Shown one piece after another: positions 4,436 through 39,598 of a stretch of 44,755 nucleotides of DNA. Position numbers and translations under genes: made by a program. This DNA comes from Candidatus Thalassarchaeaceae archaeon (lineage in GTDB: Archaea > Thermoplasmatota > Poseidoniia > Poseidoniales > Thalassarchaeaceae). Under the pieces are notes generated by a model that made no database searches, was not told where the DNA came from, and saw nothing but the letters and a program-made list of their open reading frames with translations. Each line of letters begins with the position of its first letter. Position 1 is the stretch's first letter. The stretch lies in assembly GCA_029250665.1 (NCBI GenBank), contig JAQXEV010000006.1, forward strand, positions 1 through 44,755. Direction: 5' to 3'.

Positions 4436-7002
4436 TCGACCCGAACACCTTCATCGATGCGCGACGCGCAATGACTGCATCCCATCCCAAGTTTGAGCGG
4501 CGCGATGAAGACGCAGCCGAAGGCGGCTGTGGAGTGGTCGGCCTCGCCTGCGAAATACCAGTTGCTGGACGCCACTTATTCGACTCACTCGAACAGATGC
4601 GTAACCGAGGTAACGGCAAGGGCGGCGGAGTCGCTATGGTCGGCCTCAATCCAGACCAATTCGGCACCGACCGCGAAACCCTTGCTTCGACCTACCTCTA
4701 CGCGGTCGCCTACCTCAACAACGAGGTGCGATCCGGAGTTGAAGCACTCATCACAGAAGCCTACAATCTCCATCACACGCACGAGATGCCTACCCTCCCA
4801 ACTTGGCAACAAGACCTGCCAGCACTCGAGGTCCAACCTCCATCTGTAGTCTGCTACTTTGTCACACCGAGGGCTGACAAAGTCGACGAATTCATCGAAA
4901 ACCAACTCTCGGCAGTTGTCGACGCGGCTGACCGAGCCGCGGTCGAAGAGGAATACACCTTCCACATCACTCATTCACTGAACGTCGAATTCTACGCCAA
5001 AGACGGGCGAACTGACGCATTTGTTTTGAGCCACGGCCGAGACATTTTGATTTTGAAAATCGTTGGATATGCAGAGGATGTCATCCGCTACTACCGTCTC
5101 GACGATATGACTGCACACGTCTGGATAGGCCACCACCGCTACCCTACGCGCGGCAGAGTCACGCACCCTGGTGGGGCACACCCCTTTGGTCAGGGAATCG
5201 ATTGCGCGCTTGTTCACAACGGAGATTTCTCGAATTATGTATCGGTGAAAGATTACCTCGGTCAGAGAGGGATGGAACCACTTTTCTTCACCGATACCGA
5301 GGTCGCTGCGTTGGCTTTCGATCTACATCGCCGGGTCTATGGATACACGCTTGAACATGTGATTGAGAGCTTGGCACCGACCAGCGAACTCGACTTTATC
5401 ATGCTGCCAAAGGAGAAGCAAGTGGTTTACGAGGCGATTCAGAAGACGCATATCCACGGTTCGCCCGATGGTCCATGGTTCTTCATCATCGCACAATCCG
5501 ATGGTCCCACTCATCGATTGCTTGGGATTACTGACACATCGATGCTGCGCCCGCAGGTTTTCGCTTACCAGCGCGGCGATGTTGGAATAGCATTCTGTGG
5601 TTCCGAGAAGCAGGTTATCGATGCAGTTCTCGACTCGCTCGCCTCCGAGGATACTCGATTTTGGCGGCGCGCAGATGAATATTGGAATGCGCGCGGTGGG
5701 TCATATACCGATGGCGGCGCATTCATGTTCGATGTTACGCCGAACGCTGACGGAAGCAAGACGTTGGAGATGCGTGACAAGTTCGGCGCAATTGTCAACA
5801 CTACTCCAGAGGGTGATTACAAACTCATGCCAGCTGGCGAGTATGCATTCACTCTCGATACTCCTAGGGCCACTTTCGATGGGCTGGTTGCAGGACTTCC
5901 ATCGATGGATTGGTCTGAGGCTCGAGCCTGTCTAGAAGCAATCGAGAACGCATCTGGAGACAAGGGTCGAACTTGGGTTTGGGATACTCTGACTCTACTA
6001 CTCGACCGCCGCTACAATTGTGGCAGCCTACGCGAATCGGTCTGGAAGGACCTCGTCGAGGCTGCCTTGATTCGCACGGTGGCATCTTCCGCAGCCTATC
6101 CGTGCGATGCATACAATGGACAGAAAACGCTCGGCCACAGGCCTGAGCCAGCGAGCGTATCACAAGCGATTGTTGTCGACGCTCGCCCATATCCAATCGA
6201 AGGAATCGAATCGCTAGCCCTAGAACTCGTGGCTCTTCACCGAATGGGCTGGAAGCGATTCGTCGTCATCAATTGCCAAGGTCACCGATTCATTGGAAAC
6301 GGTTTCGGCCCAGCTACAAGCGATGTGCGAATCGACGTTTTGGGCGCGGCAGGAGATTATCTCGGAAGCGGCAACGATGGTATGACAATCCACATGCATG
6401 GCAATGGACAGGACCAAATCGCTCAGATTCACAAGTCTGGCGAGTTGGTCATTCACGGTGATGTCGGTCAGTGCTACGGCTACGGGTCGAAGGGCGGAGA
6501 GATGTTTGTTCTCGGTAATGCTGCGGGTCGTCCAATGATCAATTCTGTGGGCGGACCACGTTTGGTAATCAACGGCACTGCGCTGGATTACTTGGCTGAA
6601 TCATTCATGGCTGGAGATCCGCTTGACGGCGGTGGCTTCGTCATCATCAACGGCCTGAAGTTTGGAGTCGATGGAAGCATGAGCGCTCTCGAGACTCCGT
6701 ATCCTGGCAGCAATTTGTTTTCGTTGTCTAGTGGCGGGGCGATTTATGTTCGTGACCCGCACGATAGGTTGTCTGCTTCGCAATTGAACGGTGGCGAATT
6801 CACCGAGCTGACCGAGGCTGATTGGGAGGTTATTGAGCCACTATTGCTGCGCAATGAGGAACACTTCGATATTCCACTAGAGCGGTTGTTGACGGTCGGT
6901 GGCAAGCGCCGCAGTCCATACAATGTCTATCGCAAGATTTCCCCTGTGAAGTCGAAGACCTTGCACGCTGAGGCGGCTTGGGTCGGGCATCATGACGATT
7001 GA
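4432..7002 (+). CDS. Glutamate synthase class II glutamine amidotransferase domain fused to GXGXG C-terminal domain (GltB1-GltB3)
   Basis: EGGCGVVG (Ntn nucleophile Cys33 after a propeptide), RNRGNGKGGG, GHHRYPT, AHPF, VHNGD, TDTEV, LRPQ; C-terminal GXGXG repeats GHRFIGNG, GDYLGSG, GDVGQCYGYG, SGGAIYVR. Confidence 0.88.
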   Translation: MIDPNTFIDARRAMTASHPKFERRDEDAAEGGCGVVGLACEIPVAGRHLFDSLEQMRNRGNGKGGGVAMVGLNPDQFGTDRETLASTYLYAVAYLNNEVRSGVEALITEAYNLHHTHEMPTLPTWQQDLPALEVQPPSVVCYFVTPRADKVDEFIENQLSAVVDAADRAAVEEEYTFHITHSLNVEFYAKDGRTDAFVLSHGRDILILKIVGYAEDVIRYYRLDDMTAHVWIGHHRYPTRGRVTHPGGAHPFGQGIDCALVHNGDFSNYVSVKDYLGQRGMEPLFFTDTEVAALAFDLHRRVYGYTLEHVIESLAPTSELDFIMLPKEKQVVYEAIQKTHIHGSPDGPWFFIIAQSDGPTHRLLGITDTSMLRPQVFAYQRGDVGIAFCGSEKQVIDAVLDSLASEDTRFWRRADEYWNARGGSYTDGGAFMFDVTPNADGSKTLEMRDKFGAIVNTTPEGDYKLMPAGEYAFTLDTPRATFDGLVAGLPSMDWSEARACLEAIENASGDKGRTWVWDTLTLLLDRRYNCGSLRESVWKDLVEAALIRTVASSAAYPCDAYNGQKTLGHRPEPASVSQAIVVDARPYPIEGIESLALELVALHRMGWKRFVVINCQGHRFIGNGFGPATSDVRIDVLGAAGDYLGSGNDGMTIHMHGNGQDQIAQIHKSGELVIHGDVGQCYGYGSKGGEMFVLGNAAGRPMINSVGGPRLVINGTALDYLAESFMAGDPLDGGGFVIINGLKFGVDGSMSALETPYPGSNLFSLSSGGAIYVRDPHDRLSASQLNGGEFTELTEADWEVIEPLLLRNEEHFDIPLERLLTVGGKRRSPYNVYRKISPVKSKTLHAEAAWVGHHDD

Positions 7003-10791: not shown

Positions 10792-10895
10792 GGAGGAAGC
10801 GAATTCTAATCCCTCTTGGAATCGTTTTCATCGAACACGAGTAAGCGCGGGGTTTGAATGCCGGTCGGCAGGGCGTTGAGTTGAGAGAGATAGCC

Positions 10896-13220
10896 ATGCC
10901 GAGGCCGCGGATTCTGACAGTAGTGGTGATTCTGCTACTCCTAGGGACTTTGGCGTCGAGCAGTACTTCTGCTCAAAGTGGAGAGGAATACGGCCCCGGA
11001 CTTGACCTTGAACTGCCACAATCTCACAATATTTTCCTCCACGGGACCGAAGAGACTCCTGAGTTACGGCGCGATTGGCCAATACTCACTGGAATCCCTG
11101 GTGGTTCAGCGAGTTTCTCGAAAACGGTCGGCGCACCTCAGACGCTGCTCGACGTTGAAGGCGCGCCGATTGAGGAGGCGTTTTCCCTCAACGGAACAGT
11201 CACCGTCGATCTCTATGCTTCCCTCGAAGCGAAATCGCCGGTTTGTAGGCAGACCAATGTAATTCCAGGCTCTCCAGCAGGAGCGACGACGGTTTTCTTT
11301 GTTACCTTGCAGTGGGGGTCATACACCATTTTGAATGGGGTTACAACGAATGATTTGACGATGGAGGAATCATACACTCAGTCTCATCTTTTCCAAGTCG
11401 AGGTTCCTATCGAGGATATCAGCCTTGGTCCGGGGGATGTGCTCTCTCTCCAAGTTTCCGTTCAACACGACTGCGTTCAACCGGGGTCACTCTGGTGGGG
11501 GACGTATGATGCTCGGAGTGGAATCACTTTCACCGGTGACCTAATTGATCCACAAATGAATCAAGTCACCGACTCCAATAGGATCACAAGAATCGAATTC
11601 ACCCCAATTTCACCCTGGGGTTCCGACGACTTCTCAGATCAGGTCATCGAGGTCGTCGGACCGATGGATGATTACGAATCGATGGTACATGGATTCGGTC
11701 AGGAGGATGAGCGTCTCGAGCACTTCGAGGCGCCACATTCATTCAGAGTGGGCGAGGCTAATCGGACAGTTCTAACTTGGTCGACATCGAATCCATTGCA
11801 ACCGGGATTGTACATGATTGATGCTTGCTTTACTCTACAGGACCAGGACCCGGCTGAACCATGCGATGTTGTAGCGGTACTGAAATTCGAGGTCGAGAAA
11901 GATCCCGGGGCTCTGCTAAGTGGTACTTGGGTTGCTGTGATGATTCCACTCGGAGTCATCGCTTGGTTGGGTGCCTCGATGCGTGAGGCAATGCTGCCGA
12001 TGCCGGCCTATGCAGTAATCCTCGTTCTTGCACTTGCCAGTATCGGACCAGCGATTTATTTGCCTGATATCGATGCAAATGCCTCGCGGGACGACGGCGC
12101 TGCGCCTTCCTTCACTTTGCTCGAACACGGTGGCGACGGCTCGATTTCACTCTCGGATTTACTCTCAGATTCTGACGCTGTGGTCGTTGGGATGTATGTG
12201 CCTGGGTCGGCCAATGCAATTCGTCAAGCCAATGACTTCCAGATGGCCGAAGCCTTGATCGACAGCGACGTTACTTTCGTTCAAATTGCGACTGGAAAAG
12301 GGGTCAGAGCTGTCGATTTGGATTCTCACTCGGTCATTATCAATGGTTCTTGGCCGCTATTGATGGACAAGTCCGATTCAAGCATAGGACTGGCCTTCCC
12401 CAGCGGCGCCAGCGACGCTGTAATCATCATCGATGCCGCTGGCTTCGTTACTGATTGGAATCCGGGAACTTACTCCAGTTCCGAGATCGCCGATGCGGTC
12501 GAGGATGCTAGCAAGGGTTCTGGGCACAGTTTCCTCGATCCGCTGACTTTGCTTTGGGGAACCGCGCTACTACCAATATTCATCCTCGCGATGCCCCGCG
12601 AAAGTCGCTATGAGGAGCCGGACGAAGTTCTGTTACCCGGTTCTGGAGTTCTCCTAACTCTGCTGGGTGCTGGATTTGGATTCGCGATTTGGGCTGTGCC
12701 TATTTCTCTCATGGCGGTCGCTGGACTCGGTTCAATTTGGATTTGGATTGAAGTTGGCCTTGCATCGCTACTTACCTATCACGGTGTCAGAACGCTGACT
12801 AATGGAAGAATTCCAGAGGTCGATTGGATTGCTGGAAAGATGCATTCTATGCTGCCGCAGGCCTACCGTGAATGGAGAACAACGTCTTCATTTAGCGATG
12901 ATGTCCATCTCGGAATTTGGCTTGCTTGGTTGATTTGGTTACGCACACCTGACATGGTTGCTCAGGGGGTTGGCTCGGTCGCCCGTACAGGCGGCTTTGG
13001 GGTGATTTTGGCTTTGGCGATGTTGGGGGGACTAACTCTCACCGCGGGCCTTGCGGTCGTTCTCTCGCGTGGCATAATCGGCGTTACAGGCCCGATTCCT
13101 CGTACTCTGGGTAGTCTCAGCGTTGGTATCCGTCCGAGAGCTTGGGGTTTGGCCAGTGCCATGCTTGGGGCTTGGTTACTAGTGAGCCTAATCGTTGGAC
13201 CTTTGATTGGTTCACTATGA
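10896..13220 (+). CDS. Multidomain membrane protein: secreted beta-rich domain, 2 TM, AhpC/TSA-thioredoxin-like domain without CxxC, C-terminal multi-TM domain
   Basis: Signal peptide; APSFTLL...ISLSDLL...VVVGMYVPGSANA and VIIIDAAGFV resemble a redoxin fold; ~6 C-terminal TM helices. Confidence 0.7.
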   Translation: MPRPRILTVVVILLLLGTLASSSTSAQSGEEYGPGLDLELPQSHNIFLHGTEETPELRRDWPILTGIPGGSASFSKTVGAPQTLLDVEGAPIEEAFSLNGTVTVDLYASLEAKSPVCRQTNVIPGSPAGATTVFFVTLQWGSYTILNGVTTNDLTMEESYTQSHLFQVEVPIEDISLGPGDVLSLQVSVQHDCVQPGSLWWGTYDARSGITFTGDLIDPQMNQVTDSNRITRIEFTPISPWGSDDFSDQVIEVVGPMDDYESMVHGFGQEDERLEHFEAPHSFRVGEANRTVLTWSTSNPLQPGLYMIDACFTLQDQDPAEPCDVVAVLKFEVEKDPGALLSGTWVAVMIPLGVIAWLGASMREAMLPMPAYAVILVLALASIGPAIYLPDIDANASRDDGAAPSFTLLEHGGDGSISLSDLLSDSDAVVVGMYVPGSANAIRQANDFQMAEALIDSDVTFVQIATGKGVRAVDLDSHSVIINGSWPLLMDKSDSSIGLAFPSGASDAVIIIDAAGFVTDWNPGTYSSSEIADAVEDASKGSGHSFLDPLTLLWGTALLPIFILAMPRESRYEEPDEVLLPGSGVLLTLLGAGFGFAIWAVPISLMAVAGLGSIWIWIEVGLASLLTYHGVRTLTNGRIPEVDWIAGKMHSMLPQAYREWRTTSSFSDDVHLGIWLAWLIWLRTPDMVAQGVGSVARTGGFGVILALAMLGGLTLTAGLAVVLSRGIIGVTGPIPRTLGSLSVGIRPRAWGLASAMLGAWLLVSLIVGPLIGSL

Positions 13221-18419: not shown

Positions 18420-18551
18420 AAGCCCTTCATCGGAGGTGAACTACACAGTGTCAGTTCTCGGGCGGGTATTGTACCAGCCGGAGCCCTTCTTTGAGCCGCC
18501 CGTAGGGCGGCGCACGCATTGACCGAACCTTCATACCCGAATCGATATCGC

Positions 18552-21500
18552 ATGAACTCGTTGCCCATGCGTAGCCTGACACCTCTCACGTTATTCGCCA
18601 TTCTGATGGTGACGAGCCTCTCGCCCCTTGCGTTTGGCCCGGCACTGGACCACAACCCAGCGCGCGAGGTCTCACCTCGTGCCCTAATCGACTTCGAAGT
18701 GACAGCCATCGAGATTGGAAACGGTTCTCTCGACGCGAGGGAATGGACCAATCCAGATGACAGCATCGTTGAATATGTTCTCCGCGATGAATTGATTCAG
18801 ATCAATGTCACATTCACCCAAGCAGGAACCTCTGGCCAGCCGGCGAGTGCAAGTGGAATGTTGCAGATATGGCACCCTGTGGGATTCATGATTACACAGT
18901 GGGAAGTGAATATGACACTCTCCGGATTCCAATCCCACCGAGCAGAATTCTACTGGACTCCTAATTCTGCTCACAGCCAACTCGATGAGAATGGATATCT
19001 CGTTGGCGGTATAATCCTCCGCGGCATCATTGACGGCGGCCTCGCAGACGACAATGAAGAGAATAATCAGCTCGACCGCGAGATGCCAGTCGCTGTATGG
19101 GACGACCCGATGGAGAACGGCATTTGCGGAGATGTAGATCAAGACAATACTGCAGATTGCCCGAACCAACTAAGCTACGGCAACCCAACTTGGGTCGGAG
19201 CTGGCTACGATTCCGACGGTTCTCTCTCCGACAACCCTGATTACTACGGGCACTGGAGGATGGACAACACCTCGAGTGCCATTGGCGAGCGCCACTGGCG
19301 AATCTCCCGACAGGGCGCTGATTACGCAAGCAACCGAATTGATCGCATCTGGTGGGGTTGGTTGACACCTTTCGAATCCTGTGAGGATCCCGGACACGGT
19401 CTAGGTTACGGAACACTCGACCAGAGTGTGTCTGCTGTATACGCCAACAATTTCTGCCGCGCTCGTATCCGTGGGTTCGAATTCCTCTCTTTGCAGATGG
19501 TCTCACACGCCTGGGGTAGCATGGGCGCGGGCGATATGGTCCGAATGGAAGCGGATGCCGGTAACGAGGAATTCTACAATTACACTGCTCAAGAGTTATC
19601 CGAAACTTACGGAGATTGGACTCAACTGGTTTGGAATATGTCCGACGTCCACCCGACTGGTGACTATACACTGGCATTCAGATTCGATTCGGATTCTTCC
19701 CATGCGACGCAAGGAATTCACCTTGACGGATTCATCATGTTCGGTATAGAGCGTGTACCAGAATACACCCTTGGTCTCGAATGTGACGACCCTCTACCAA
19801 ATGCATACATCGTTGTTCCTGCCGATCCACGACCACCATCCCTCTGGTGCACAGTGAAAAATAATGGATACGTCGACATCACTCTCAGACTTTACACCGA
19901 GGTGTCGAACAAGTCATGGATGTGGGAGCACCCACTGCGAATCGATTCTAACCATCCTTCAGATCACGACAATAGCGTTGTAACCAAGACCATCAAAGCA
20001 CTGGAGACCATGGATCTCTGGATCAATCTGACTATTCCCGACGGTGTGACCGTTCAGGAAGTCAATTGGTATGTCCACATCGGCGATGGTTTGACAAATT
20101 TCTCAAAGTGGTCCGTCGACTTGCCCGTCGATGTCACAGCATCATATTCGTCCTATCTGACGCAGAAAACATTGCAGAATCCTGCTCTTACATTGTTACC
20201 TGGTGAAACGGGCGATGTTTTGATGTCTCTGAAGAATACTGGAAATCAGGTTGCTACATGGAACCTCGGTGGAACTTTCGCAGACAATCGTTGGAGCGCA
20301 ACGAACCTTGTTTGGGCAAATGAGACAGGAGTCGAAATGACGAGTGTCGAGATGCAGATAGGCGACGAATTCGAACTCAATGCTCGACTCACCGCCCCTG
20401 AGGAAATCACTCCTGGTTCTTACGCGATTACACTGCTGGCCAATGGGCGTGCTCCGGCTAATTTCCAGACCGAATGGACCGTTCAAGTCGAAGTGCCGAT
20501 TGATCACGATCTGAAGTTGGTACCTGAGGTTCGAGAGATGTTGGCACCAGCCGATGGTGCTCTGAGATGGATCGAAATTCAGATGGTCAACGATGGTAAC
20601 TCCGAGGAGGCCTTTGATCTGTCGATTTCTGCCGATTGGAGACTAGGTCTCGAATTGAACGCCGAACAGACTCTCGGTATCGATCCGTTCGGTGGAGATA
20701 CCAGTATTTTGCTGATGTTCCCGATGCCCTACGGAATAGAGAATGAGACCTACCAAATATGGGTCCGAGCGACCAGTCAAATCGATCCTCAATACCAGCG
20801 CAGTGTCCAATTGTTGCTAACGGTTCCCGAAACTTATCTCATCGAGGTTCCAAATATGGATCTCACCGAGGAGGTTTACCGCGCGGGTGATGATTCCCGG
20901 ACTTTGCGTTGGGAGATATGGAACCATGGGAATATGCCCGATCGGTTCCACATTTCCTTCGAGACTAGCCATTCTGACGTCTCGGTAAATGCGCAGGGAT
21001 TAACCAATGGTAAGACACCTTGGATTGGAGCTGGATCATCTCTCAATCTGACAGTTAGTTACGCCTTCGCACAGGGTGCGGATGGCGACCGCACAGTCAC
21101 CTTGATTGCTGCCAGTCAGGAGTCTGAGACAATCGGCCAGAGTGTATCTTCTCAAGGTGAGGCCGAATTCAAGGTTGGAAAGGTCGGATGGATGCTAGTT
21201 TTGCCTCCAGCCGGTGGACAAACCGTTGTTATTGATGAGAAGGGAGAATATATCCTCGAATTCACTGTTCAGAATTTGCATACTACATCTGAACAGTTGA
21301 TGAGAGCGGATATTGATCGCACTACAGAGCCTGAACTCTTCTTCAACGTCTTCGATGTCCGTGTTGACAGCGAGGACCGAGATTTCGTTCTGCCCGCCGG
21401 TTCGACAAAGGTCGTGACAGTTCGTGTTGATGTCAAGCAGGAGCATCTGGACAATCTTGGCGAGAATACGCTCGTGTTCAACGTGATTCTTGCGGTCGAT

Positions 21501-22115
21501 TCCGACATAGACAAGGTATCTGTCGGAACTCCAATTGAAATGGTGAAGACTGTTCAGGTCACCGAGGGACCCGATGTCGGATTTATCGCCAAGTTGGCAG
21601 CGAACATCGTCTTCGTCATCGCCGGATTGGTTGCGATGGCTGTCGTTGGCATAATCACATTCCGAATTTTCAAGGAAGCGCAAGCGCCACTTGAGGAATA
21701 CTCGAGCATCGAGGATTACTCGCCAAGTTTTGCCAATCTAGGGGGGGACGGAGAAGTCCCAGCCGCACCTGAGTTGCCAGCAGCCGACGAGGTTGCGAAT
21801 TCGATGTATGGTGGCTCAGCTGATATCTTTGAGAATCCTGCGGCTGAAATGCCACCGCCACCTCTACCAGAGGATGAGCAAGCAGCACCACCAGCACCAG
21901 AGATGCCTCCTCCACCAATGCCTGAACCTGAGCCTATGCCAGAGCCAGAGCCTGTTGAGGAGGAGATTCCTGAACCTGAGCCGGCTGTTGAGCCTGAGCC
22001 TGCTCTCCCACCTGGTGTCCCTCCGATTCCAGAAGATGGCCTCCCCGATGGTTGGACCATGGAGCAGTGGGCCTTTTACGGCCAGAAATGGATTGATCAA
22101 CAGAAGGGTGATTGA
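18552..22115 (+). CDS. Large cell-surface protein with tandem Ig-like (CARDB/NEW3-like) domains, C-terminal TM, Pro/Glu-rich linker and GLPDGWTMEQW tail motif
   Basis: Signal peptide; DDNEENN CARDB-like motif; repeated (V/L)xNxGN motifs; TM near the C-terminus; many N-x-S/T sequons. Start at 18552 or 18567. Confidence 0.8.
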   Translation: MNSLPMRSLTPLTLFAILMVTSLSPLAFGPALDHNPAREVSPRALIDFEVTAIEIGNGSLDAREWTNPDDSIVEYVLRDELIQINVTFTQAGTSGQPASASGMLQIWHPVGFMITQWEVNMTLSGFQSHRAEFYWTPNSAHSQLDENGYLVGGIILRGIIDGGLADDNEENNQLDREMPVAVWDDPMENGICGDVDQDNTADCPNQLSYGNPTWVGAGYDSDGSLSDNPDYYGHWRMDNTSSAIGERHWRISRQGADYASNRIDRIWWGWLTPFESCEDPGHGLGYGTLDQSVSAVYANNFCRARIRGFEFLSLQMVSHAWGSMGAGDMVRMEADAGNEEFYNYTAQELSETYGDWTQLVWNMSDVHPTGDYTLAFRFDSDSSHATQGIHLDGFIMFGIERVPEYTLGLECDDPLPNAYIVVPADPRPPSLWCTVKNNGYVDITLRLYTEVSNKSWMWEHPLRIDSNHPSDHDNSVVTKTIKALETMDLWINLTIPDGVTVQEVNWYVHIGDGLTNFSKWSVDLPVDVTASYSSYLTQKTLQNPALTLLPGETGDVLMSLKNTGNQVATWNLGGTFADNRWSATNLVWANETGVEMTSVEMQIGDEFELNARLTAPEEITPGSYAITLLANGRAPANFQTEWTVQVEVPIDHDLKLVPEVREMLAPADGALRWIEIQMVNDGNSEEAFDLSISADWRLGLELNAEQTLGIDPFGGDTSILLMFPMPYGIENETYQIWVRATSQIDPQYQRSVQLLLTVPETYLIEVPNMDLTEEVYRAGDDSRTLRWEIWNHGNMPDRFHISFETSHSDVSVNAQGLTNGKTPWIGAGSSLNLTVSYAFAQGADGDRTVTLIAASQESETIGQSVSSQGEAEFKVGKVGWMLVLPPAGGQTVVIDEKGEYILEFTVQNLHTTSEQLMRADIDRTTEPELFFNVFDVRVDSEDRDFVLPAGSTKVVTVRVDVKQEHLDNLGENTLVFNVILAVDSDIDKVSVGTPIEMVKTVQVTEGPDVGFIAKLAANIVFVIAGLVAMAVVGIITFRIFKEAQAPLEEYSSIEDYSPSFANLGGDGEVPAAPELPAADEVANSMYGGSADIFENPAAEMPPPPLPEDEQAAPPAPEMPPPPMPEPEPMPEPEPVEEEIPEPEPAVEPEPALPPGVPPIPEDGLPDGWTMEQWAFYGQKWIDQQKGD

Positions 22116-22215: not shown

Positions 22216-23826
22216 ATGTACAACGGTCAACAACCAATATTTATCCTCAAGGAAGGGACTACTCGAACCAGCGGTAAGACCGCTCAGAGCAATAATATCG
22301 CGGCAGCTAAGGCCGTTTCTGACGCGGTTCGTAGCACCCTCGGGCCAAAGGGAATGGACAAGATGCTTGTCGATGCAATGGGCGATGTAGTCATCACTAA
22401 CGATGGTGCTACAATACTCAAGGAAATGGACATCGAACACCCTGCTGCCAAGATGATTATCGAGATCGCTAAGACTCAGGAGCAGCATTGCTTCGACGGT
22501 ACCACAAGTGCCGTTGTCATTGCAGGAGAGTTGCTCAAGCGTAGCGAGGACCTCGTCGACCAGAACGTCCACCCAACTGTAATCTGCGAGGGCTTCAGGC
22601 TCGCCTCAGATAAGGCCGCAGAACTCATCGATTCTCATTCTCTCGAGGTCAATGAGGAGCGACTTCACGAGGTCGCTATGACCGCCCTTACTGGCAAGAG
22701 TGCCGGGGCTGTCAAGGAATTCCTCGCAGACATATCAGTCCGTGCTGTCCTTGCAGTTAGCCAAGAAACCGATGACGGCGTCGTCGTCGACCTCGACGAC
22801 ATCAAGATTGAGAAGAAGCAGGGTGGGTCAATCAAGGACAGTTCCCTCGTCGACGGAATTATCCTCGACAAGGAGCGAGTCCACTCAGGAATGCCTCGCT
22901 CGGTCGCTGGCGCAAAGATTGCACTCATCAACTCGGCAATCGAGGTCAAGAAGACAGAAGTCGACGCTAAGATTCAGATCACAGATCCAAATATGCTGGC
23001 GCAATTCCTCGACGAGGAGGAATCATTCCTCAAGGGCCTCGTCGACAGCATCATCGCCAGCGGAGCCAATGTCGTCATCTGCCAGAAGGGCATAGACGAT
23101 TTGGCTCAGCACTACATGGCCAAGGCCGGTATATTCGCTATTCGCCGCGCTAAGAAGAGCGACATGGAAGCGCTCTCAAAGGCGACCGGCGGCAGTATCG
23201 TCACCAATGTCGATGACCTTAGCGGAGACGACCTCGGTCAAGCCGCAAAGGTTGACGAGCGAAAGATCGGCGATGCAGACATGGTCTTCATCACCGGCTG
23301 CCCGGAAGCCAAGAGCGTCAGCGTATTGCTGCGCGGCGGAACCGAGCATGTGGTCGATGAGATTCGCCGCGCATTCGATGACGCCGTTGGCGTCGTTGCA
23401 GTTGCTCACGAAGATGGAGCAGTTCTCACCGGCGGCGGTTCAGTTCTAGCAGCCATCAGCCGCGACTTGCGATCATACGCCGAAGGAATCGGTGGAAGGG
23501 AACAGATGGCAATCGAGGCCTTCGCCGGAGCTCTCGAGGTCATTCCTCGAACCCTCGCCGAAAACGCTGGCCTCGACCCGGTGAACACGATTATCGATCT
23601 CAGAAAGGCACATTCCGAAGGTCTCTCGACCTACGGAGTGAACGTCTACGACGGCGGAGTCGTAGACATGGCAGAGAGCAGAGTGTACGAGCCCAGCCGT
23701 GTTGTGGAACAGGCCGTGCAGAGCGCTTCGGAGACCGCAGTGATGATCCTCAGGATTGACGATGTCATCTCTAGCAAGGGCGGCGGCGGCATGGATGGCG
23801 CCGACTTCGATGGCTTCGATATGTGA
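22216..23826 (+). CDS. ths: Thermosome subunit (group II chaperonin)
   Basis: [33 protein letters not shown], Gly/Met-rich tail. Confidence 0.98.
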
Positions 23827-23833
23827 GGTCGAT

Positions 23834-23850
23834 TACGACCGTAGGTCGTA
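23834..23850 (+). terminator. Hairpin after the thermosome gene (candidate terminator or 3' stabiliser)
   Basis: TACGACC-GTA-GGTCGTA perfect 7-bp stem just after the stop codon. Confidence 0.4.
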
Positions 23851-23921
23851 TCACTAGTTTACATCAAGTTCAAGAATCGATTTCGGGTGGGGCAACCACC
23901 CGTCGGGGCTGAGTTGGAAAA

Positions 23922-25895
23922 ATGGCCATCGTCAGTGTCTATATTGAGGAGGGTTGCATCACCTGTGATGCCTGTGAAGAGATACTTCCAGAAGTCTTCC
24001 ACGTGACCGATGATACTTGCTTCATCAATGCCGAAGTGAGGCTTGATGGTGGATACGATAGGAACGAAGGGAAGGCGGGATTGAAGCCTGAAACTCTAGC
24101 TTCATTCGAAGATGACCTTCTCGACGCTGCTGATGGTTGTCCAGTCGATGTGATCATCATCGTCGAAGGTGGAGTGGCGGCCGCTGCTGAGCCCGAGGAG
24201 GCTGCTGCACCAGCCGCTGAAGCTACTGTAGAACCTGTGGCGTCCGAGCCCATCGAAGTGTCTGGTGATGATATCGGTGAGTTGCTAAGTGTTGGTGACC
24301 GCAGCCTCGCGATTCTCTTTGGCTCACAATCTGGAAACTCTGAGGACCTCGCTGCGAAGTTTGCAAAGCAGGCTGCGGATTATGGCCTCGAAGGAACCGT
24401 CCATGATATGGATGGCTTCGATTTTGGTTCGCTGTCGGGTATGAAGAGAGTCCTCATCGTCTGTTCTACTTGGGGAGAGGGCGAAATGCCCGACAATGCT
24501 GAGGAGCTTTGGCAGACCTCAACGAAGGCTCCAGCCGGCACTCTGTCCGGAGTCCACTTCTCGGTCTGTGCTCTCGGTGATACGAGTTACGAATTCTTCT
24601 GTGAGTCTGGAAAGGAATGGGATGAGCAATTCGAGAAACTCGGTGCTACACGACTCGTGGAGCGCGTCGATTGTGATGTCGATTACGATGCACCAGCAGC
24701 CGCATGGGCTATCGATGCACTGGCTGCTCTAGCCGCCGTCGATGGCTCCGGCGTCTATCATGAAGATATGATTGAGGCGATCAAGGCTAACGCCGCTGGC
24801 GATGTTGGCGGCGCCGACGGTGAAGACGGATTCTCAGTACCTGATCTAACGGCCGCCACTGTACAGGCCGAAATCAGCATCTTCCGCTATGATCCAGAGC
24901 AGGCATCGACCGGTTCCGACACTTGGGTCTGTGCGATGCCGGGTCACCTGAGTCTGCTGGAAACTCTTCGAACCATCAAGAGCACACACGATGGTAGCCT
25001 GTCCTTCCGTGACGGGGCTGCCGACGACCCATCGACTGCAATCTGCGTCAATGGGAGATTGGTTCTCCCAGGCATGATTCGCCTCGACGCTGTCGCCCCG
25101 ACTCGCGATGGAGTTCTCAGTCTGCGAGTCGACCCACTACCTGGCTTCGAAGTCATTCGTGACCTCGTCGTCGATCATTGGCCGATGGAGCGCAGGCGCG
25201 AATCAACCGAACCATGGATGGTCGCCGCAACTCGAGAAGGGGCCGCTACCATGCAAGGCGCCATCGGAGTAATGGATCCGAATGTCGCTACAGCGTTACA
25301 CTCGATTACTGATTTCAGCAGTGCCGCCCTCCTTCAAGCATCATCCGACGCTGTTCCACATGCGAATGGCTACCTCGGCCCCTCTGTCCTCGCTTCTGCT
25401 TGGGCTCGCCGTAACGATCCACGTTCATCGCATTCATCGGTTGCCAGCCTTGATTCGATCCTTGGAAGTAAGAACGGAATCAAGGCTGAGACAGATTTAG
25501 CCAGTATTCGTCGGCAGAATGGATCCGGTGTAGTCATCTCAGAGGCTTTGCTTGACGCAAGGACGCACGTTCTCGAGCAGGACGCATTCACAGGGCGTCA
25601 CGGCAAGCATGTTTGGTGGTACGCTTGGACGCTGAAATCGAGTGGAAAGGTCAACGATACTGTCCTCTATCGACAAGTTCTCGGCCCGATTGGACTTATT
25701 GGAAATCTGACTTCAGGAGTCACTGCGCGAATGGTGACCGGATTCACGCGCACAGGTGGAGACATGTTCTACGATATGTTGGCGATGGTCGCTCCGCCCG
25801 CAGGATTAGGAAAGATGCCGCGGCAATTCAATTCATCAGTCGAGAACCATCATGAGGTCGTAGCAATTTTCAATGAGCTCGACGGGAGATTCTGA
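23922..25895 (+). CDS. Ferredoxin + flavodoxin + SdhB/FrdB-like (Cys-depleted) fusion protein
   Basis: CITCDAC...GCPVDVI; ILFGSQSGNSE, STWGEGEMPDNA, ALGDTSYEFFC; IFRYDPE, IKSTHDGSLSFR, VDPLPGFEVIRDLVVD, YLGPSVL..AW..RNDPR. Confidence 0.85.
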   Translation: MAIVSVYIEEGCITCDACEEILPEVFHVTDDTCFINAEVRLDGGYDRNEGKAGLKPETLASFEDDLLDAADGCPVDVIIIVEGGVAAAAEPEEAAAPAAEATVEPVASEPIEVSGDDIGELLSVGDRSLAILFGSQSGNSEDLAAKFAKQAADYGLEGTVHDMDGFDFGSLSGMKRVLIVCSTWGEGEMPDNAEELWQTSTKAPAGTLSGVHFSVCALGDTSYEFFCESGKEWDEQFEKLGATRLVERVDCDVDYDAPAAAWAIDALAALAAVDGSGVYHEDMIEAIKANAAGDVGGADGEDGFSVPDLTAATVQAEISIFRYDPEQASTGSDTWVCAMPGHLSLLETLRTIKSTHDGSLSFRDGAADDPSTAICVNGRLVLPGMIRLDAVAPTRDGVLSLRVDPLPGFEVIRDLVVDHWPMERRRESTEPWMVAATREGAATMQGAIGVMDPNVATALHSITDFSSAALLQASSDAVPHANGYLGPSVLASAWARRNDPRSSHSSVASLDSILGSKNGIKAETDLASIRRQNGSGVVISEALLDARTHVLEQDAFTGRHGKHVWWYAWTLKSSGKVNDTVLYRQVLGPIGLIGNLTSGVTARMVTGFTRTGGDMFYDMLAMVAPPAGLGKMPRQFNSSVENHHEVVAIFNELDGRF

Positions 25896-25904
25896 GGTGA
25901 GAAA

Positions 25905-26765
25905 ATGGCTGTCAAATACGCTTACCACCCTGGAAATGTCGCCCACAGCAGCGCTCCCGAGGTTGCTGATACGATGGGCCCCTTGGCTCGCGCCTTGGAT
26001 ATCACTCTGGTTCCTTTACCGGGAGCTACCAGTTGCGGCGCCGGAATTGTAAGACAGGCTAACCGTCGCCTGCAGTTGACTCTCAATGCACGTACCTTTG
26101 CTATGGCAGAGGCACAGGGTCTGGATATCATGACTCCGTGTGCTGCGACGGCGGGTAATTTACACGAGGACCTGATGACTTTGAGGTCAGACCAAATTTT
26201 GCTGCAAGAAGTCAATGAGACTCTGCAGCGCACTTGTGGTTTGACGATGACAGGGGATGTTGCAGTTCACCACTTACTACACGCGGTTGTCGATGAGATT
26301 GGACTAGACAAGTTAGCGGATAAGGTCCGCAACCCGATTGATTTCGCGGTTGCTGGATATTACGGACCAAACATGCAGCAAGAAGGCGCTTGTGGCGGAG
26401 ATGATGTGTATGATCCAGATTATCTTGAGCAGTTAATTTCAGCTCTTGGTGGAACTCCAGTTAGCTGGGAGGCTCGGACTCAGAGTGTCGGCGTCCCTGG
26501 GATATTCAGTGAGGAGCCGACTGTGATGAAGCAAGCTGCTGAGGCTCTGTCCGAGGCTAAGGCTGAAGGTGCTGAGTTGATTGTCAGCGCTTGCAATCTT
26601 TCTCATACCGTTCTTGATGTATATCAGGGCAAGGCCGGTCGTGATACCGGACTTGCGACTAACATCCCAGTGATTCATCTGTGCGAGATGCTTGCTTTCG
26701 CTCTTGGTACACACAATAGCCGATTGGCTCTACTCAGGACTCGTATCGCTGTTATCGGTGACTGA
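25905..26765 (+). CDS. SdhE/HdrB-like CCG-domain protein with degenerate cysteine motifs
   Basis: YAYHPG, SCGAG, LNARTFAMAE, TPCAAT, VAGYYG, SACNLSH..LDVYQ, IPVIHL..MLAFALG match the HdrB/SdhE scaffold; GAGGTGA SD, 9 nt after the upstream stop. Confidence 0.85.
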   Translation: MAVKYAYHPGNVAHSSAPEVADTMGPLARALDITLVPLPGATSCGAGIVRQANRRLQLTLNARTFAMAEAQGLDIMTPCAATAGNLHEDLMTLRSDQILLQEVNETLQRTCGLTMTGDVAVHHLLHAVVDEIGLDKLADKVRNPIDFAVAGYYGPNMQQEGACGGDDVYDPDYLEQLISALGGTPVSWEARTQSVGVPGIFSEEPTVMKQAAEALSEAKAEGAELIVSACNLSHTVLDVYQGKAGRDTGLATNIPVIHLCEMLAFALGTHNSRLALLRTRIAVIGD

Positions 26766-26770
26766 TTCTC

Positions 26771-29431
26771 TCAGCGATTACGAAGACGCTCACCGGAGCG
26801 AAATGTCCGCCAGATTTCGCGGACTTGGGTTTCTGTAATTCCTTCGACTTGACGTAGTTCATCTTCGTCTGCCCAGACTAGACCTGCGATGGTTCCGAAT
26901 CGGTTGAGTAGACGGGTTGCGAGGTCTTCGTCGACGCTGGGAATAGCGACGAGCAGGGTGATTGCGCCTGTGCGCTCGTCGTCTTCACTGCCGCGGAGTT
27001 GGCGGGCAGCGGCAGCGGCTTGGGTTACGGGATCAGTCCAGAATTCTGGTTTGACCGCCTCTAACCTATCTCGCGCGTGAGGAGTAAGTCCGTCAAGCAT
27101 CGATTCTTCGCGGCGCGATGCGACCGTGAGGAATCTGGCTGTTTCTGCCCCATCTTTCGTAGTGACCACAGGGATTCCGAAGTCGAGTGCGAGAGTAGTG
27201 AGTGCTCCCATCAGTGCGTGGGGGTGGACTCTGGGGGAGCGGAACAGTCCTTCTCCCTCGATTAGTAGCAGACTTCTGGGGGCTGCTCCGACTAGTCTGC
27301 TCGCTTGTTCGAGGAGCCTGCCGTCGACGAGTGAGTCGACGAAGTCTCTGACAGTTTTCCGCTCAACTAGGATTCGCTCGCCGATACGAAAGTCACCCGT
27401 CTCGAGACGGTCGATTCGGACCTCAGTCCCTAATGCCTTCAATCGTGCCACTACGGCGCTGTTGAGTTCTCTATCATCGGCTGTAACCGTTGCTCCGGGG
27501 ACATCGGGTAGGCTATCTTCAAGGTCGATTAAATCTTGTGCGGCTGAGACTGGGTGTTTTGTCTCTTCAGGAGGCTTTGGATAGCTCTTACTTGGTGGGT
27601 TGGAAGGGCTTGATTCTTTTTCGCGTATGTGGGGTGTTTGTCCTCCCGCTGTTTTCTGCTTCTTTAGGACAACATCCTCACGCTGTGCTGGGAAATTTTC
27701 GAGACCGGTTTGCCCCCTCGGTCTGAATGTGGATGGGGGGATTATTCGAGGCTCTGCTGCAGTCTCTGTGGTCTCAGGCTGCTGCTGCTCACTGAGTTCC
27801 GGGCGATGTGCCTCTCGTATGCTTCGGACAAACTCAGCAGCAGGAGTTATTTCGTCTTCGATTATTACTCGGAACTGAGCCAAATTTGAGAGATCAAGAT
27901 GGCCACTACGAGCCAATTTTCTTCGAACTCTGCCGACTGCTCGGTACATGTTTTCTTCACGTCGAAGGGCGGCTGCACGCGCTCCTTCATCACGAGTATC
28001 TTCGGCTATCAAGACGACAACATCTCCATCGCGATGACGGCCGGTTCGACCCCGGCGCTGGATATTACGAATTTCGCTAGGTACCGGCTCGTAGAATATC
28101 ACGAGATCGGCACTAGGAATGTCAAGTCCTTCCTCGCCGACGCTCGTAGCAATCAGTATGTTTCCTTCGCCCGAGCGGAACGATTCGATGCGACTGACCT
28201 GCTGCTTTGGTGTCAGGCCTTTCCCACTTCCTCGCTTGCTTTGGCCGATGAATTGGATTGGCTTGGCACCTTCGAGGTTCTCCAATGCTGTATCTAGGGC
28301 TGTCACTGAATCTCTGAAGGTCGCGAAGACGATGATTCGGGATTCGGGGTCGCGGCGCAGCCTTTCTCTTACTAGTCGCCGGACTGCGCCGACCTTACTG
28401 TGAATCTCGCCGATTTCAGCGAGGCTCGCTCGTAGGTCTCTGACTCGCGGGTCACGGAGAAGATTGCGCGTGTTCTTCTTCTCTGAGTCCGCACCGCTCT
28501 CCTTTCGGTCGAGGAATTCTCGAGCGGCAGCGGTACCTTGGCAGAGAAGGTGGTTGATCAAGTGGTGAAGGGACATCGCCAATCCGATTCTGCTCATCGA
28601 TCCGTAGGCGTCCGACTCCCCTCTGCGAATCGCGACATTCGCTCTCTCCATCGCATTGGCAAGTCCAGAATGAGAGGCAGGCCCTGGCAGGACATATCTG
28701 CCGAGCCGACGCTCTCGGTCGACGATACTCTCCTGCCAACGAACGAAAGGCTCCGCAAGTTCTCGAATTTCGTTCGGAACTTTGACTCGTAATTCCTCAA
28801 TATCGAGATTTGCGAGGTGTTCTGTGAGCATCTCATCGCTTGAACTACGCATGTGGATTCGCTCTACTGCAAGCCTCTGACAAATTTCTTCGACTTTCTC
28901 AGTCTTCGATCCCGGGCTCGCAGTCATCCCAAGAATCAGTGGATCAGCAGCGATCCCGAGATAGAGATCGGCAACTTGTGCTTCGCCACGTTGCCCTGTC
29001 GCGTGATGCGCCTCGTCAATTACCAATACACAACAGTCGTTCAGATCCAACACACCCCTAGTCACATCGTTACGAACCACTTGAGGTGTTGAGACGATGA
29101 GGCGACTCTTCTGCCACATTCCGTCTCGCTTCGATGCAGGTATCGCTCCGCTCATTGCGATAGGTTCGATTGTTTCGTCCTTGAACACAGCTTGCAAATC
29201 ATCGAGATGTTGCTTCACAAGAGCTACTGTCGGCGCGATCATCAGCGCCCAGCCATCAGAGCGCTGTAGCATTTCGGCCATAACCATCCAAGCAACGGCG
29301 GTCTTTCCTGCCGCTGTCGGGAGCACAAGAAGGGTCGAACCAGACAGCGCTACATCGACTGCCTCTAGTTGATACGCTCGGGCTTCAATGACCTCGTCAC
29401 GAAGCCCATCATGCTGTAGCCTCGCGCTCAT
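26771..29431 (-). CDS. hef: Hef helicase-nuclease (FANCM/XPF homolog)
   Basis: RAYQ, LPTAAGKT, IDEAHH, TASPG, EEGLDIP, QRRGRTGR; ERCC4 nuclease GDF...VERKT; C-terminal HhH motifs. Confidence 0.95.
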   Translation of the reverse strand: MSARLQHDGLRDEVIEARAYQLEAVDVALSGSTLLVLPTAAGKTAVAWMVMAEMLQRSDGWALMIAPTVALVKQHLDDLQAVFKDETIEPIAMSGAIPASKRDGMWQKSRLIVSTPQVVRNDVTRGVLDLNDCCVLVIDEAHHATGQRGEAQVADLYLGIAADPLILGMTASPGSKTEKVEEICQRLAVERIHMRSSSDEMLTEHLANLDIEELRVKVPNEIRELAEPFVRWQESIVDRERRLGRYVLPGPASHSGLANAMERANVAIRRGESDAYGSMSRIGLAMSLHHLINHLLCQGTAAAREFLDRKESGADSEKKNTRNLLRDPRVRDLRASLAEIGEIHSKVGAVRRLVRERLRRDPESRIIVFATFRDSVTALDTALENLEGAKPIQFIGQSKRGSGKGLTPKQQVSRIESFRSGEGNILIATSVGEEGLDIPSADLVIFYEPVPSEIRNIQRRGRTGRHRDGDVVVLIAEDTRDEGARAAALRREENMYRAVGRVRRKLARSGHLDLSNLAQFRVIIEDEITPAAEFVRSIREAHRPELSEQQQPETTETAAEPRIIPPSTFRPRGQTGLENFPAQREDVVLKKQKTAGGQTPHIREKESSPSNPPSKSYPKPPEETKHPVSAAQDLIDLEDSLPDVPGATVTADDRELNSAVVARLKALGTEVRIDRLETGDFRIGERILVERKTVRDFVDSLVDGRLLEQASRLVGAAPRSLLLIEGEGLFRSPRVHPHALMGALTTLALDFGIPVVTTKDGAETARFLTVASRREESMLDGLTPHARDRLEAVKPEFWTDPVTQAAAAARQLRGSEDDERTGAITLLVAIPSVDEDLATRLLNRFGTIAGLVWADEDELRQVEGITETQVREIWRTFRSGERLRNR

Positions 29432-38910: not shown

Positions 38911-38920
38911 GGGGTGATTG

Positions 38921-39598
38921 ATGATGGATTACGAAGGTAAAACAGTCGCTGAACTGAAGGATCTGCTCCGTGCAGCCGAATTGCCGGTATCCGGTAAGAA
39001 GGCCGATCTCATTGCTCGCCTACAGGAGGCTGGAGATACTCCAGCCGCCGTCGAAGAAGTCGACAACGAAGAAGTCCCGGAAGATATCTCTGATGATGTC
39101 GAGATGGACGAGGTCGATGACGACTTCGAAGGTGAGGAATTTGAGGACGAGTGGGATGACTTCCACACAGCTCGCCAGAAACCGGTCCTCGACGATGCAA
39201 CCAAGGAAGCGCTCGCAACCCGTGCGGCTCAGAAGAAGAAGCAACCTGCTTTCCGCCGCCAAGAGTGGTTCCGCTACAAGCGTCTCTCGCGCACTGGCTG
39301 GAAGAAGCCACGCGGAGACGACTCGAGCCAGCGCAAGAACCGCAAGTATCGCTCTCCTATGGTCCGTATCGGCTTCGGCAAGATTGCTGACGCTCGCGGA
39401 CTCCACCCCTCTGGATTCGAAGAAGTTCTCGTCAGCACTGCTGGCGACCTCGACGGACTCGATCCGGAGCGCCAGGCCGTACGTATCTCAGCCTCGGTCG
39501 GCAATCGCAAGAGATCAAGCATCCACGACCGCGCCGACGATCTCGGTCTACGCGTTCTCAATCGCCGTCGCTTCGCGCGCAAGGGGGACTTGAGATGA
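38921..39598 (+). CDS. rpl32e: 50S ribosomal protein L32e with N-terminal SAP-like domain and acidic linker
   Basis: P.FRRQEW..YKRL, WKKPRG, RGLHPSG, LRVLN; N-terminal TVAELKDLLRAAELPVSGKKADLIARL. Confidence 0.95.
   Translation: MMDYEGKTVAELKDLLRAAELPVSGKKADLIARLQEAGDTPAAVEEVDNEEVPEDISDDVEMDEVDDDFEGEEFEDEWDDFHTARQKPVLDDATKEALATRAAQKKKQPAFRRQEWFRYKRLSRTGWKKPRGDDSSQRKNRKYRSPMVRIGFGKIADARGLHPSGFEEVLVSTAGDLDGLDPERQAVRISASVGNRKRSSIHDRADDLGLRVLNRRRFARKGDLR

Follow-up and report, generated by a model that had tools for sequence, protein, structure and literature searches.

Tethered electron carriers on a cluster-less SdhB module of Poseidoniales: a possible descendant of type E succinate dehydrogenase

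What does the iron-sulfur (Fe-S) subunit of a succinate dehydrogenase (SDH) do once every ligand of its clusters is gone? The question is raised by a gene in the 44,755-nucleotide (nt) stretch of contig JAQXEV010000006.1 from a Candidatus Thalassarchaeaceae archaeon (hereafter the window), in which a ferredoxin, a flavodoxin and an SdhB-like module are joined in a single open reading frame (ORF) and which is followed by a gene for an SdhE/HdrB-like protein. Reading the letters alone, the original prediction took the product for a structural pseudo-subunit that tethers both carriers to a membrane-associated complex. The analysis reported here supports the view that the fusion is a selected and folded pseudo-subunit with tethered carriers, not a decaying gene. 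It also adds one new element, a candidate third subunit of SdhA fold encoded elsewhere in the genome. The original prediction had overlooked this stripped paralogue, as well as the comparable loss of ligands in the neighbouring gene. The two genes and the parts of the fusion protein (res, residues; aa, amino acids) are laid out as follows.

23922-25895, plus strand: the fusion ORF, 657 aa, intact frame.
23922..24170, plus strand: ferredoxin domain, res 1-83, with the motif C12-x2-C15-x2-C18 ... C73-P of the single [4Fe-4S] type.
24171..24299, plus strand: flexible linker rich in Ala, Glu and Pro, res 84-126, marked by a low predicted local distance difference test score (pLDDT) and by alignment variability.
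24300..24746, plus strand: flavin mononucleotide (FMN) flavodoxin domain, res 127-275, of the type of CysJ, MioC and cytochrome P450 reductase (CPR), by Pfam, NCBIfam and Foldseek.
24747..24863, plus strand: second linker, res 276-314, low pLDDT.
24864..25481, plus strand: cluster-less SdhB core, res 315-520, a plant-ferredoxin-like N-domain plus a helical domain.
25482..25895, plus strand: Cys-free third-cluster segment and C-terminal extension, res 521-657 plus stop.
25905..26765, plus strand: SdhE/HdrB-like partner, 286 aa, in which C44, C79 and C230 are left of the CCG cysteines.

The layout first proposed (intact single-cluster ferredoxin, Ala/Glu linker, CysJ/MioC-type flavodoxin, SdhB-like domain) is borne out by Pfam, NCBIfam and the translation, which contains all the strings that had been quoted: CITCDAC...GCP, LSFRDGAADDPSTAIC, FSSAALLQASSDAVP, IFRYDP, PLPGFEVIRDLVVD, YLGP and DPR. 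Both carriers score above their Pfam cut-offs, the ferredoxin with Fer4_13 (PF13370, residues 9-78, 32.2 bits against 24.5) and the flavodoxin with Flavodoxin_1 (PF00258, residues 131-255, 109.8 bits against 25, 1.7e-31). Below their own cut-offs, NCBIfam models also match the flavodoxin, namely the FMN part of cysJ (TIGR01931, residues 127-272, 3.1e-40) and MioC (1e-19). The FMN phosphate and ring motifs, GSQSGN and WGEG...PDNA, are nearly invariant in 33 aligned sequences, and Foldseek matches the domain to the FMN domains of CPR and NDOR1. Among the SdhB models, only that of the N-domain passes its cut-off (Pfam Fer2_3, residues 318-421, 37.9 bits against 27); the NCBIfam SdhB/FrdB models match the C-terminal half at 1e-14 to 1e-13, far under the curated cut-offs (TIGR00384, 52.1 bits against 88; PRK05950, 53.9 against 228). 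Source annotations call the gene merely 'flavodoxin domain-containing protein' or 'hypothetical protein'.

The loss of ligands from the SdhB module is complete. When a profile of the C-terminal 352 residues of 33 orthologs is aligned by hhalign with nine long SdhB proteins (probability 99.9%, E 1.7e-36, residues 309-576), all 11 cluster ligands are found to be replaced in register. The four positions of the 2Fe-2S cluster are occupied by A, a gap, T and G, those of CxxCxxCxxxCP by F, A, L and S, and those of the third cluster motif by E523, I and N. This last motif had been described as absent; its segment is in fact present in register (GIKAETDLASIRRQNG) and merely devoid of Cys. As had been claimed, only two cysteines remain between residues 300 and 657, C337 and C375. 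None of the ligand columns holds Cys in more than one of the 50 orthologs fetched, while C337, kept in 46/50, is the sole conserved Cys of the SdhB part. This supports the earlier contention that the module would be unable to carry the normal Fe-S wire.

The fold has nevertheless been kept. An AlphaFold2 (AF2) monomer model built on 33 sequences has a pLDDT of ~85-93 over residues 313-598, and its best Foldseek matches in the PDB, over ~245 columns, are 1kf6_B (E 3.7e-13, template modelling (TM) score 0.83) and 6lum_B (TM 0.85). Structure prediction thus returns the two-domain SdhB fold, at TM 0.83-0.85 to FrdB/SdhB. The ferredoxin (pLDDT ~73-85) and flavodoxin domains are also confidently folded, and pLDDT falls below 50 at residues 83-115, 294-305 and 599-645. 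Motifs of the old SdhA interface are retained in the module (PW432, H460 and D499-x-R501). The last ~80 residues, after ~576, have no aligned counterpart in long SdhB, yet no part of the protein is better conserved, and many of their residues are invariant across the aligned orthologs. An SdhE-type, amphipathic C-terminal extension had been predicted here. Homology to long SdhB does hold up to about residue 576, but an amphipathic character of the extension is not clear (its helical moment is 0.56 at best, and none of its 19-residue windows exceeds 1.41 on the Kyte-Doolittle (KD) scale).

Selection on the gene is strong. Measured against the closest unsaturated relative (dS 0.39), the ratio of nonsynonymous to synonymous substitution (dN/dS) is 0.067 over the fusion gene, 0.037 and 0.052 over the two SdhB domains and 0.027 over the C-terminal extension, the first linker having the highest dN of all segments and varying in length and sequence among the aligned orthologs. 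In the SdhE-like neighbour dN/dS is 0.09. An ortholog of the C-terminal 358 residues is present in 150/151 sampled genomes of the order (here Poseidoniales by database names), in 58/58 high-quality genomes and in 22/22 genera; the single genome without one is 85% complete and in 300 contigs. Across the phylum, 201 genomes were sampled (36 of the order and 165 others, two of these of the same class); the fusion is matched at E<=4.1e-52 in 36/36 and 0/165, respectively, the 165 matching merely with ordinary SdhB at 1e-9 to 1e-13. Likewise, 17 of 1.84 billion representative proteins match the fusion family at E<=1e-30, and database source names assign it to Poseidoniales/Thalassarchaeaceae. It is the ortholog conservation, the want of ligand Cys in 50 orthologs and the low dN/dS (0.027-0.052 over the SdhB part) that argue against decay, and they rule out a neutral drift confined to the present sequence, with the cysteines retained in its orthologs. 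Conserved and folded, with intact carrier domains on flexible linkers, the protein has the properties of the tethering pseudo-subunit that had been envisaged.

The carriers can be exchanged. Among the 50 loci, the N-terminal modules are ferredoxin-flavodoxin in 36, flavodoxin-flavodoxin in ten, a lone flavodoxin in two (L014 and L018, both in the window's own genus), a lone ferredoxin in one (L025) and two ferredoxins in one (L053). Each of the four ferredoxin cysteines is kept in 38/50 orthologs, that is, in all 38 loci that bear a ferredoxin. The set of carriers thus differs even inside the window's genus. What stays constant is the cluster-less SdhB module together with its SdhE-like partner.

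This partner adjoins the fusion in 50/50 loci, with a gap of 2-13 nt in 49. It is recognized by Pfam CCG (8.5e-09), by the NCBIfam model MFR_anch_SdhE (1.7e-29) and by the HdrB model TIGR03288 (1e-36), in the last case with 126.7 bits against a cut-off of 345, and it is homologous over its full length to 8rvv_B (E 3.8e-28, residues 5-274). Residue-by-residue alignment with 8rvv_B leaves it 3/10 CCG cysteines (C44, C79 and C230). Two of these, C79 and C230, one per former CCG site, are invariant in 50/50 orthologs. The second CCG site is degenerate throughout these 50, and the first is complete, with five Cys, in nine (L040-L043, L047, L048 and L051-L053). In a phylogeny of the SdhB core that takes long SdhB as its root, the nine are basal in both large families; well-supported branches account for at least two losses of the last cluster, and the best tree has four. 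Arg584 in the SdhB extension is found in 41/41 loci with a lost first CCG site as against 0/9 with a complete one, and Arg584 and the extension motif PPAG co-vary with the CCG state of the neighbour in 50/50 loci. Since this change accompanies each CCG loss, it suggests, as a hint, that the extension contacts the former cluster site of the neighbour.

Assembled contigs from RNA libraries cover both genes and bridge their junction in 4/4 runs examined, from four studies (X1, 25390-26671; X2, 25498-26089; X3, 25716-25936; X7, 25401-26313). At least half of the sampled words from 23800-26800 are contained in eight RNA-library runs. Such contigs are no proof of a single transcript, DNA carry-over being possible and the cover patchy in parts.

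At one locus (L056:3095-5860), the SdhB-like and SdhE-like genes are read through as one frame, given as 922 aa or 997 aa. This fusion, 1/50, was set aside as evidence: with a ~24-residue deletion and a frame change at the junction, it may be natural or an assembly error.

Does the genome, then, lack a working SDH? It does not, and the intact sdhAB for which a search had been suggested lie on contig C52 (30680-34170; locus L057/L001), in an operon that is complete with an anchor, SdhA (615 aa) and SdhB (255 aa, all Cys motifs). A PDB sequence search matches the anchor, of 290 aa, to 7d6v_C, the Sdh1 anchor of Mycobacterium smegmatis (E 8.9e-39), and judged by this match the canonical SDH belongs to the Sdh1 type. 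The 290-aa anchor is recognized by no model of Pfam or NCBIfam. Pfam Sdh_cyt (PF01127) was not found in the genome, which is misleading as to an anchor, since the one present is of the Sdh1 kind. A 410-aa HdrD/GlpC-like protein (genome G000, contig C49:8972-10204, minus strand), in which a hydrophobic N-terminal stretch is combined with two 4Fe-4S motifs and two CCG domains, both intact, is the sole fully liganded CCG protein found in the genome; its intact motifs indicate that the organism still builds CCG clusters. With a complete canonical SDH and an intact CCG protein at hand, the stripped module is not a forced substitute. In total, the genome encodes two SdhB-fold proteins and, besides a NadB-type L-aspartate oxidase, two complex II-type SdhA-fold proteins.

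The second of the latter, a third copy beside SdhA and NadB, is the candidate partner.

Genome G000, contig C32:13959-15389 (locus L059:1132-2559), minus strand: SdhA-fold flavoprotein, 476 aa, from an SdhA-type domain search of the genome.

It carries Pfam FAD_binding_2 (FAD, flavin adenine dinucleotide) and Succ_DH_flav_C and scores 206 bits with TIGR01812, whose cut-off is 567. Its model (pLDDT 91, predicted TM score 0.91) resembles complex II flavoproteins (TM 0.93-0.94) more than L-aspartate oxidase (0.83) or flavocytochrome c3 (0.64). The FAD glycine motifs are invariant in its orthologs. In contrast, the His of covalent FAD attachment, the hinge Thr-Glu and the dicarboxylate-binding His and Arg are replaced in this protein and in 32/32 orthologs examined, with the exception of the HPT histidine, which is kept in the protein itself and in 21/32. 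Because the covalent-FAD His and the dicarboxylate residues are missing, its substrate is predicted to be neither succinate nor fumarate. Matches at E<=1e-49 occur in 147/151 genomes of the order, the other four yielding paralogue-level matches, and in the phylum sample the protein follows the pattern of the fusion gene (36/36 as against 0/165). ESM Atlas returns generic 'FAD binding domain-containing protein' clusters only.

The SdhA-like protein was co-folded with residues 306-657 of the fusion in three runs with three controls. The interface score (ipSAE, interaction prediction score from aligned errors) is 0.94 in the three runs and 0.00 in the best control; the pass mark was reached by 58/80 solved complexes and 2/110 mismatched pairs. 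Contacts agree to at least 92% and the partner pLDDT is 71-72. The predicted docking site is the classical SdhA-SdhB interface, including the former 2Fe-2S loop (residues 361-371), and residues 306-309 of the second linker lie inside it. On this model, the SdhA-like protein is predicted to dock on the SdhB module.

These features can be joined in a working proposal, to which we give about an even chance: a complex derived from type E SDH, consisting of three stripped paralogues, in which the Fe-S wire has been replaced by tethered and swappable carriers. The fusion would be the central subunit of this order-specific flavoprotein complex. Its SdhB module would act as a docking scaffold, which keeps its fold and the old subunit interfaces and binds no Fe-S cluster, and the lost wire would be made good by one or two electron-carrier domains on flexible N-terminal tethers. 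In the present protein this role would fall to the [4Fe-4S] ferredoxin and the FMN flavodoxin; relatives have a pair of flavodoxins, a pair of ferredoxins or one carrier only. The SdhE/HdrB-like protein, which is probably co-transcribed and appears to have lost its own clusters in the window's lineage, would bind the scaffold, with the strongly conserved C-terminal extension as the probable contact. The SdhA-like flavoprotein would most likely sit on the ancestral SdhA-SdhB interface, and its FAD would exchange electrons with external partners by way of the tethered FMN and 4Fe-4S centres, in the manner of a diflavin reductase. The proposal builds on the domain make-up, ligand loss, fold, conservation, selection, adjacency and RNA-library presence described above; to these it adds a three-subunit assembly taken from the model and, as we infer them, the cofactor content, the electron path and its direction, and the substrate.

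Several observations weigh against this proposal or deprive it of support. FMN is not essential to the design, given that one relative has two ferredoxins (L053) and another a ferredoxin only (L025), both without a flavodoxin. The co-variation with the CCG state rests on two well-supported independent events (four on the best tree), with which a sign test cannot reach significance. The co-fold pass may merely reflect the SdhA-SdhB complexes already solved, and close cousins of a true partner pass as well, among which canonical SdhA could be one. Nor is the predicted interface more conserved than the remainder, at 0.533 as against 0.537 in the SdhA-like protein and 0.618 as against 0.623 in the SdhB module; for the SdhB core alone the values are 0.618 and 0.566, a difference reached in 654/10000 permutations. 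A mirror-tree test on distance matrices of 18 genomes, from which L048, L053 and L056 were dropped as truncated or aberrant, gave a partial r of 0.36 as compared with 0.30 for the unrelated Hef and is uninformative. The SdhA-like gene never adjoins the pair, and its own conserved neighbours (HIT, acyltransferase, DUF2299, RFC-like and a 487-aa protein) are likewise uninformative. Finally, a shared phyletic pattern comes free for any two order-wide core genes.

Some of these observations favour an alternative that we consider rather unlikely but take seriously, in which there are two subunits only. The scaffold would then present its carriers to another enzyme, such as a respiratory complex or an oxoacid:ferredoxin oxidoreductase, and the SdhA-like protein would have a different function. 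Indeed, strict adjacency and bridging RNA contigs hold for the pair alone, the SdhA-like gene is unlinked, and the interface-conservation and co-evolution tests lend the trio no support. However, in most lineages the pair by itself has no fixed redox centre or substrate site, and the carriers would be left tethered to an inert body despite very strong selection. The retention of PW432, H460 and D499-x-R501 is also at odds with a two-subunit module, as is the availability of an orphan SdhA-fold protein that would fit and is distributed alike.

A different use for the old interface is conceivable. The fusion could serve as an alternative B subunit on canonical SdhA, coupling succinate/fumarate to ferredoxin or flavodoxin. 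The result would be either an SDH of low iron content or a fumarate reductase that is soluble and depends on ferredoxin. The fusion and normal SdhB have ancestral interface motifs in common, hence the co-fold pass cannot tell the SdhA-like protein from canonical SdhA, and a saving of iron would suit an organism of the surface ocean. We regard this alternative as improbable, since the canonical sdhA operon has its own anchor and a fully liganded sdhB, and the order-wide SdhA-like protein would be left without a B subunit.

Still more improbable, in our estimation, is that the SdhE-like protein itself is catalytic, with the tethered flavodoxin feeding thiol/disulfide chemistry at C79/C230. Such an activity would descend, without clusters, from chemistry like that of heterodisulfide reductase. 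The invariance of these two cysteines, when other ligand positions were lost, speaks in its favour. So does the arrangement of HdrB in the HdrABC structure, where the two CCG sites reportedly face one substrate pocket. On the other hand, a single conserved Cys may be structural, and the locus is linked to no known thiol substrate or pathway. That the locus is a decaying or non-functional remnant of an SDH operon is hardly credible: nearly all cofactor ligands have gone from two adjacent genes, but the frames are intact in 150/151 genomes, dN/dS is 0.03-0.09, the folds are confident by AF2 and Foldseek, and the stretch is present in RNA libraries of several studies.

Returning to the three-subunit proposal, what might its ancestor have been? 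Outside the family, the nearest relatives of the fusion are long SdhB proteins (~310-380 aa) of the PRK12576/PRK12577 kind, which account for 9/12 weak matches tested. The pair has its closest known counterparts in type E succinate:quinone oxidoreductase (SQR) and methylmenaquinol:fumarate reductase (PRK12576/PRK12577, MFR_FeS_SdhB, MFR_anch_SdhE), and most likely descends from the long SdhB and HdrB-like SdhE of such a non-classical, type E-like SDH. We take the pairing of these two subunits from the names of the NCBIfam models, and their organisms to be Sulfolobus/Acidianus and Campylobacter/Wolinella. Homology and gene order are common to both systems, a long, extended SdhB of two-domain fold being followed by an HdrB-like subunit with two CCG domains, and an SdhA-fold flavoprotein is present in the genome. 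Unlike in type E enzymes, 11/11 SdhB ligands and 7/10 CCG cysteines are gone, and with them the cofactor motifs of working subunits; the scores fall under every curated family cut-off; a ferredoxin and a flavodoxin are fused to the N-terminus; and the flavoprotein is unlinked and without a dicarboxylate site. This candidate partner falls short of a catalytic SdhA, the true SdhA being in another operon.

Three further comparisons are instructive. The neighbour is homologous over its full length to HdrB of the methanogen heterodisulfide reductase (8rvv_B, 5odc_B; TIGR03288), from which it differs in that both non-cubane cluster sites are incomplete, the first being complete in 9/50 relatives. 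Diflavin reductases use an FMN domain on a tether to carry electrons from the FAD site to their acceptor. Such proteins (CysJ, CPR, NDOR1), together with MioC, provide the best family and fold matches of residues 127-275. Here, however, the FAD partner would be a separate SdhA-fold chain and not a domain of the ferredoxin-NADP reductase type, and in relatives a ferredoxin can stand in place of the FMN domain. The canonical SDH of the same genome has A and B subunits paralogous to those discussed. Unlike the fusion, its SdhB keeps all Cys motifs and it has its own membrane anchor, as befits a separate and complete enzyme.

The comparison with the canonical anchor also bears on the suggestion that the complex is membrane-associated, which we could not uphold. 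No transmembrane or clearly amphipathic segment is evident in the fusion, the SdhE-like or the SdhA-like protein: no 19-residue window in the three exceeds KD 1.48, as compared with 1.91 in the canonical anchor.

In the surface ocean, Marine Group II archaea rank with the most abundant of the microbes not yet cultured, and the module is one of the universal genes by which this lineage is defined. We put forward, with somewhat less than even confidence, a broader idea: that all Marine Group II run a 'ghost complex II', made of SdhA, SdhB and SdhE paralogues with no succinate site and with exchangeable flavodoxin or ferredoxin cassettes on tethers instead of an Fe-S wire, which would be an iron-minimised flavin enzyme acting on a new substrate. 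If so, it would be central to the metabolism of abundant ocean archaea. The hypothesis of iron-sparing, part of the original prediction, is compatible with the swaps of ferredoxin for flavodoxin among relatives and with a last CCG cluster that was lost more than once. A respiratory Fe-S subunit with its fold and interfaces retained but no clusters would in any case be a clear redox pseudo-subunit to which carriers were added instead, and a natural experiment in the rewiring of an electron-transfer chain, possibly under iron scarcity. On the practical side, pipelines that count the fusion or its neighbour as sdhB, cysJ or hdrB would misjudge Marine Group II metabolism; and given a candidate for the third subunit, the question can be put to the test with three recombinant proteins.

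The domain fusion may have been noted in a fosmid report of 2004, the title of which fits the ribosomal-operon synteny of the window. In the literature searched, supplementary files lying outside the search, no description of the fusion was found. The accessible part of PMC11237513, where Poseidoniales, succinate dehydrogenase and flavodoxin occur in one paper, does not treat it, and the terms searched for the fusion are absent from PMC9723583.

As for the surroundings of the pair, it adjoins a ribosomal-protein operon that ends in SecY, by the synteny of the window, and the 286-aa ORF is followed on the opposite strand by a Hef-type helicase/nuclease. Between the pair and Hef there is no other conserved ORF, a statement made with no search aimed at SdhF. 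The gene on the other side is the following.

22216-23826, upstream of the fusion ORF: thermosome gene.

Elsewhere in the window, two large ORFs have no Pfam family, at 18519-22115 (1198 aa) and 10854-13220 (788 aa). The first of these resembles a surface protein in that its C-terminal part has a hydrophobic segment and, after it, a tail rich in Pro and Glu. Three consecutive ORFs at 1527-7002 resemble a split archaeal glutamate synthase; they encode 502 aa (no Pfam match), 466 aa (Glu_synthase) and 856 aa (GXGXG plus a glutamine amidotransferase domain). The ribosomal protein L32e encoded at 38918-39598 has a DNA-binding domain of the SAP family at its N-terminus (Pfam SAP, 7.5e-13).

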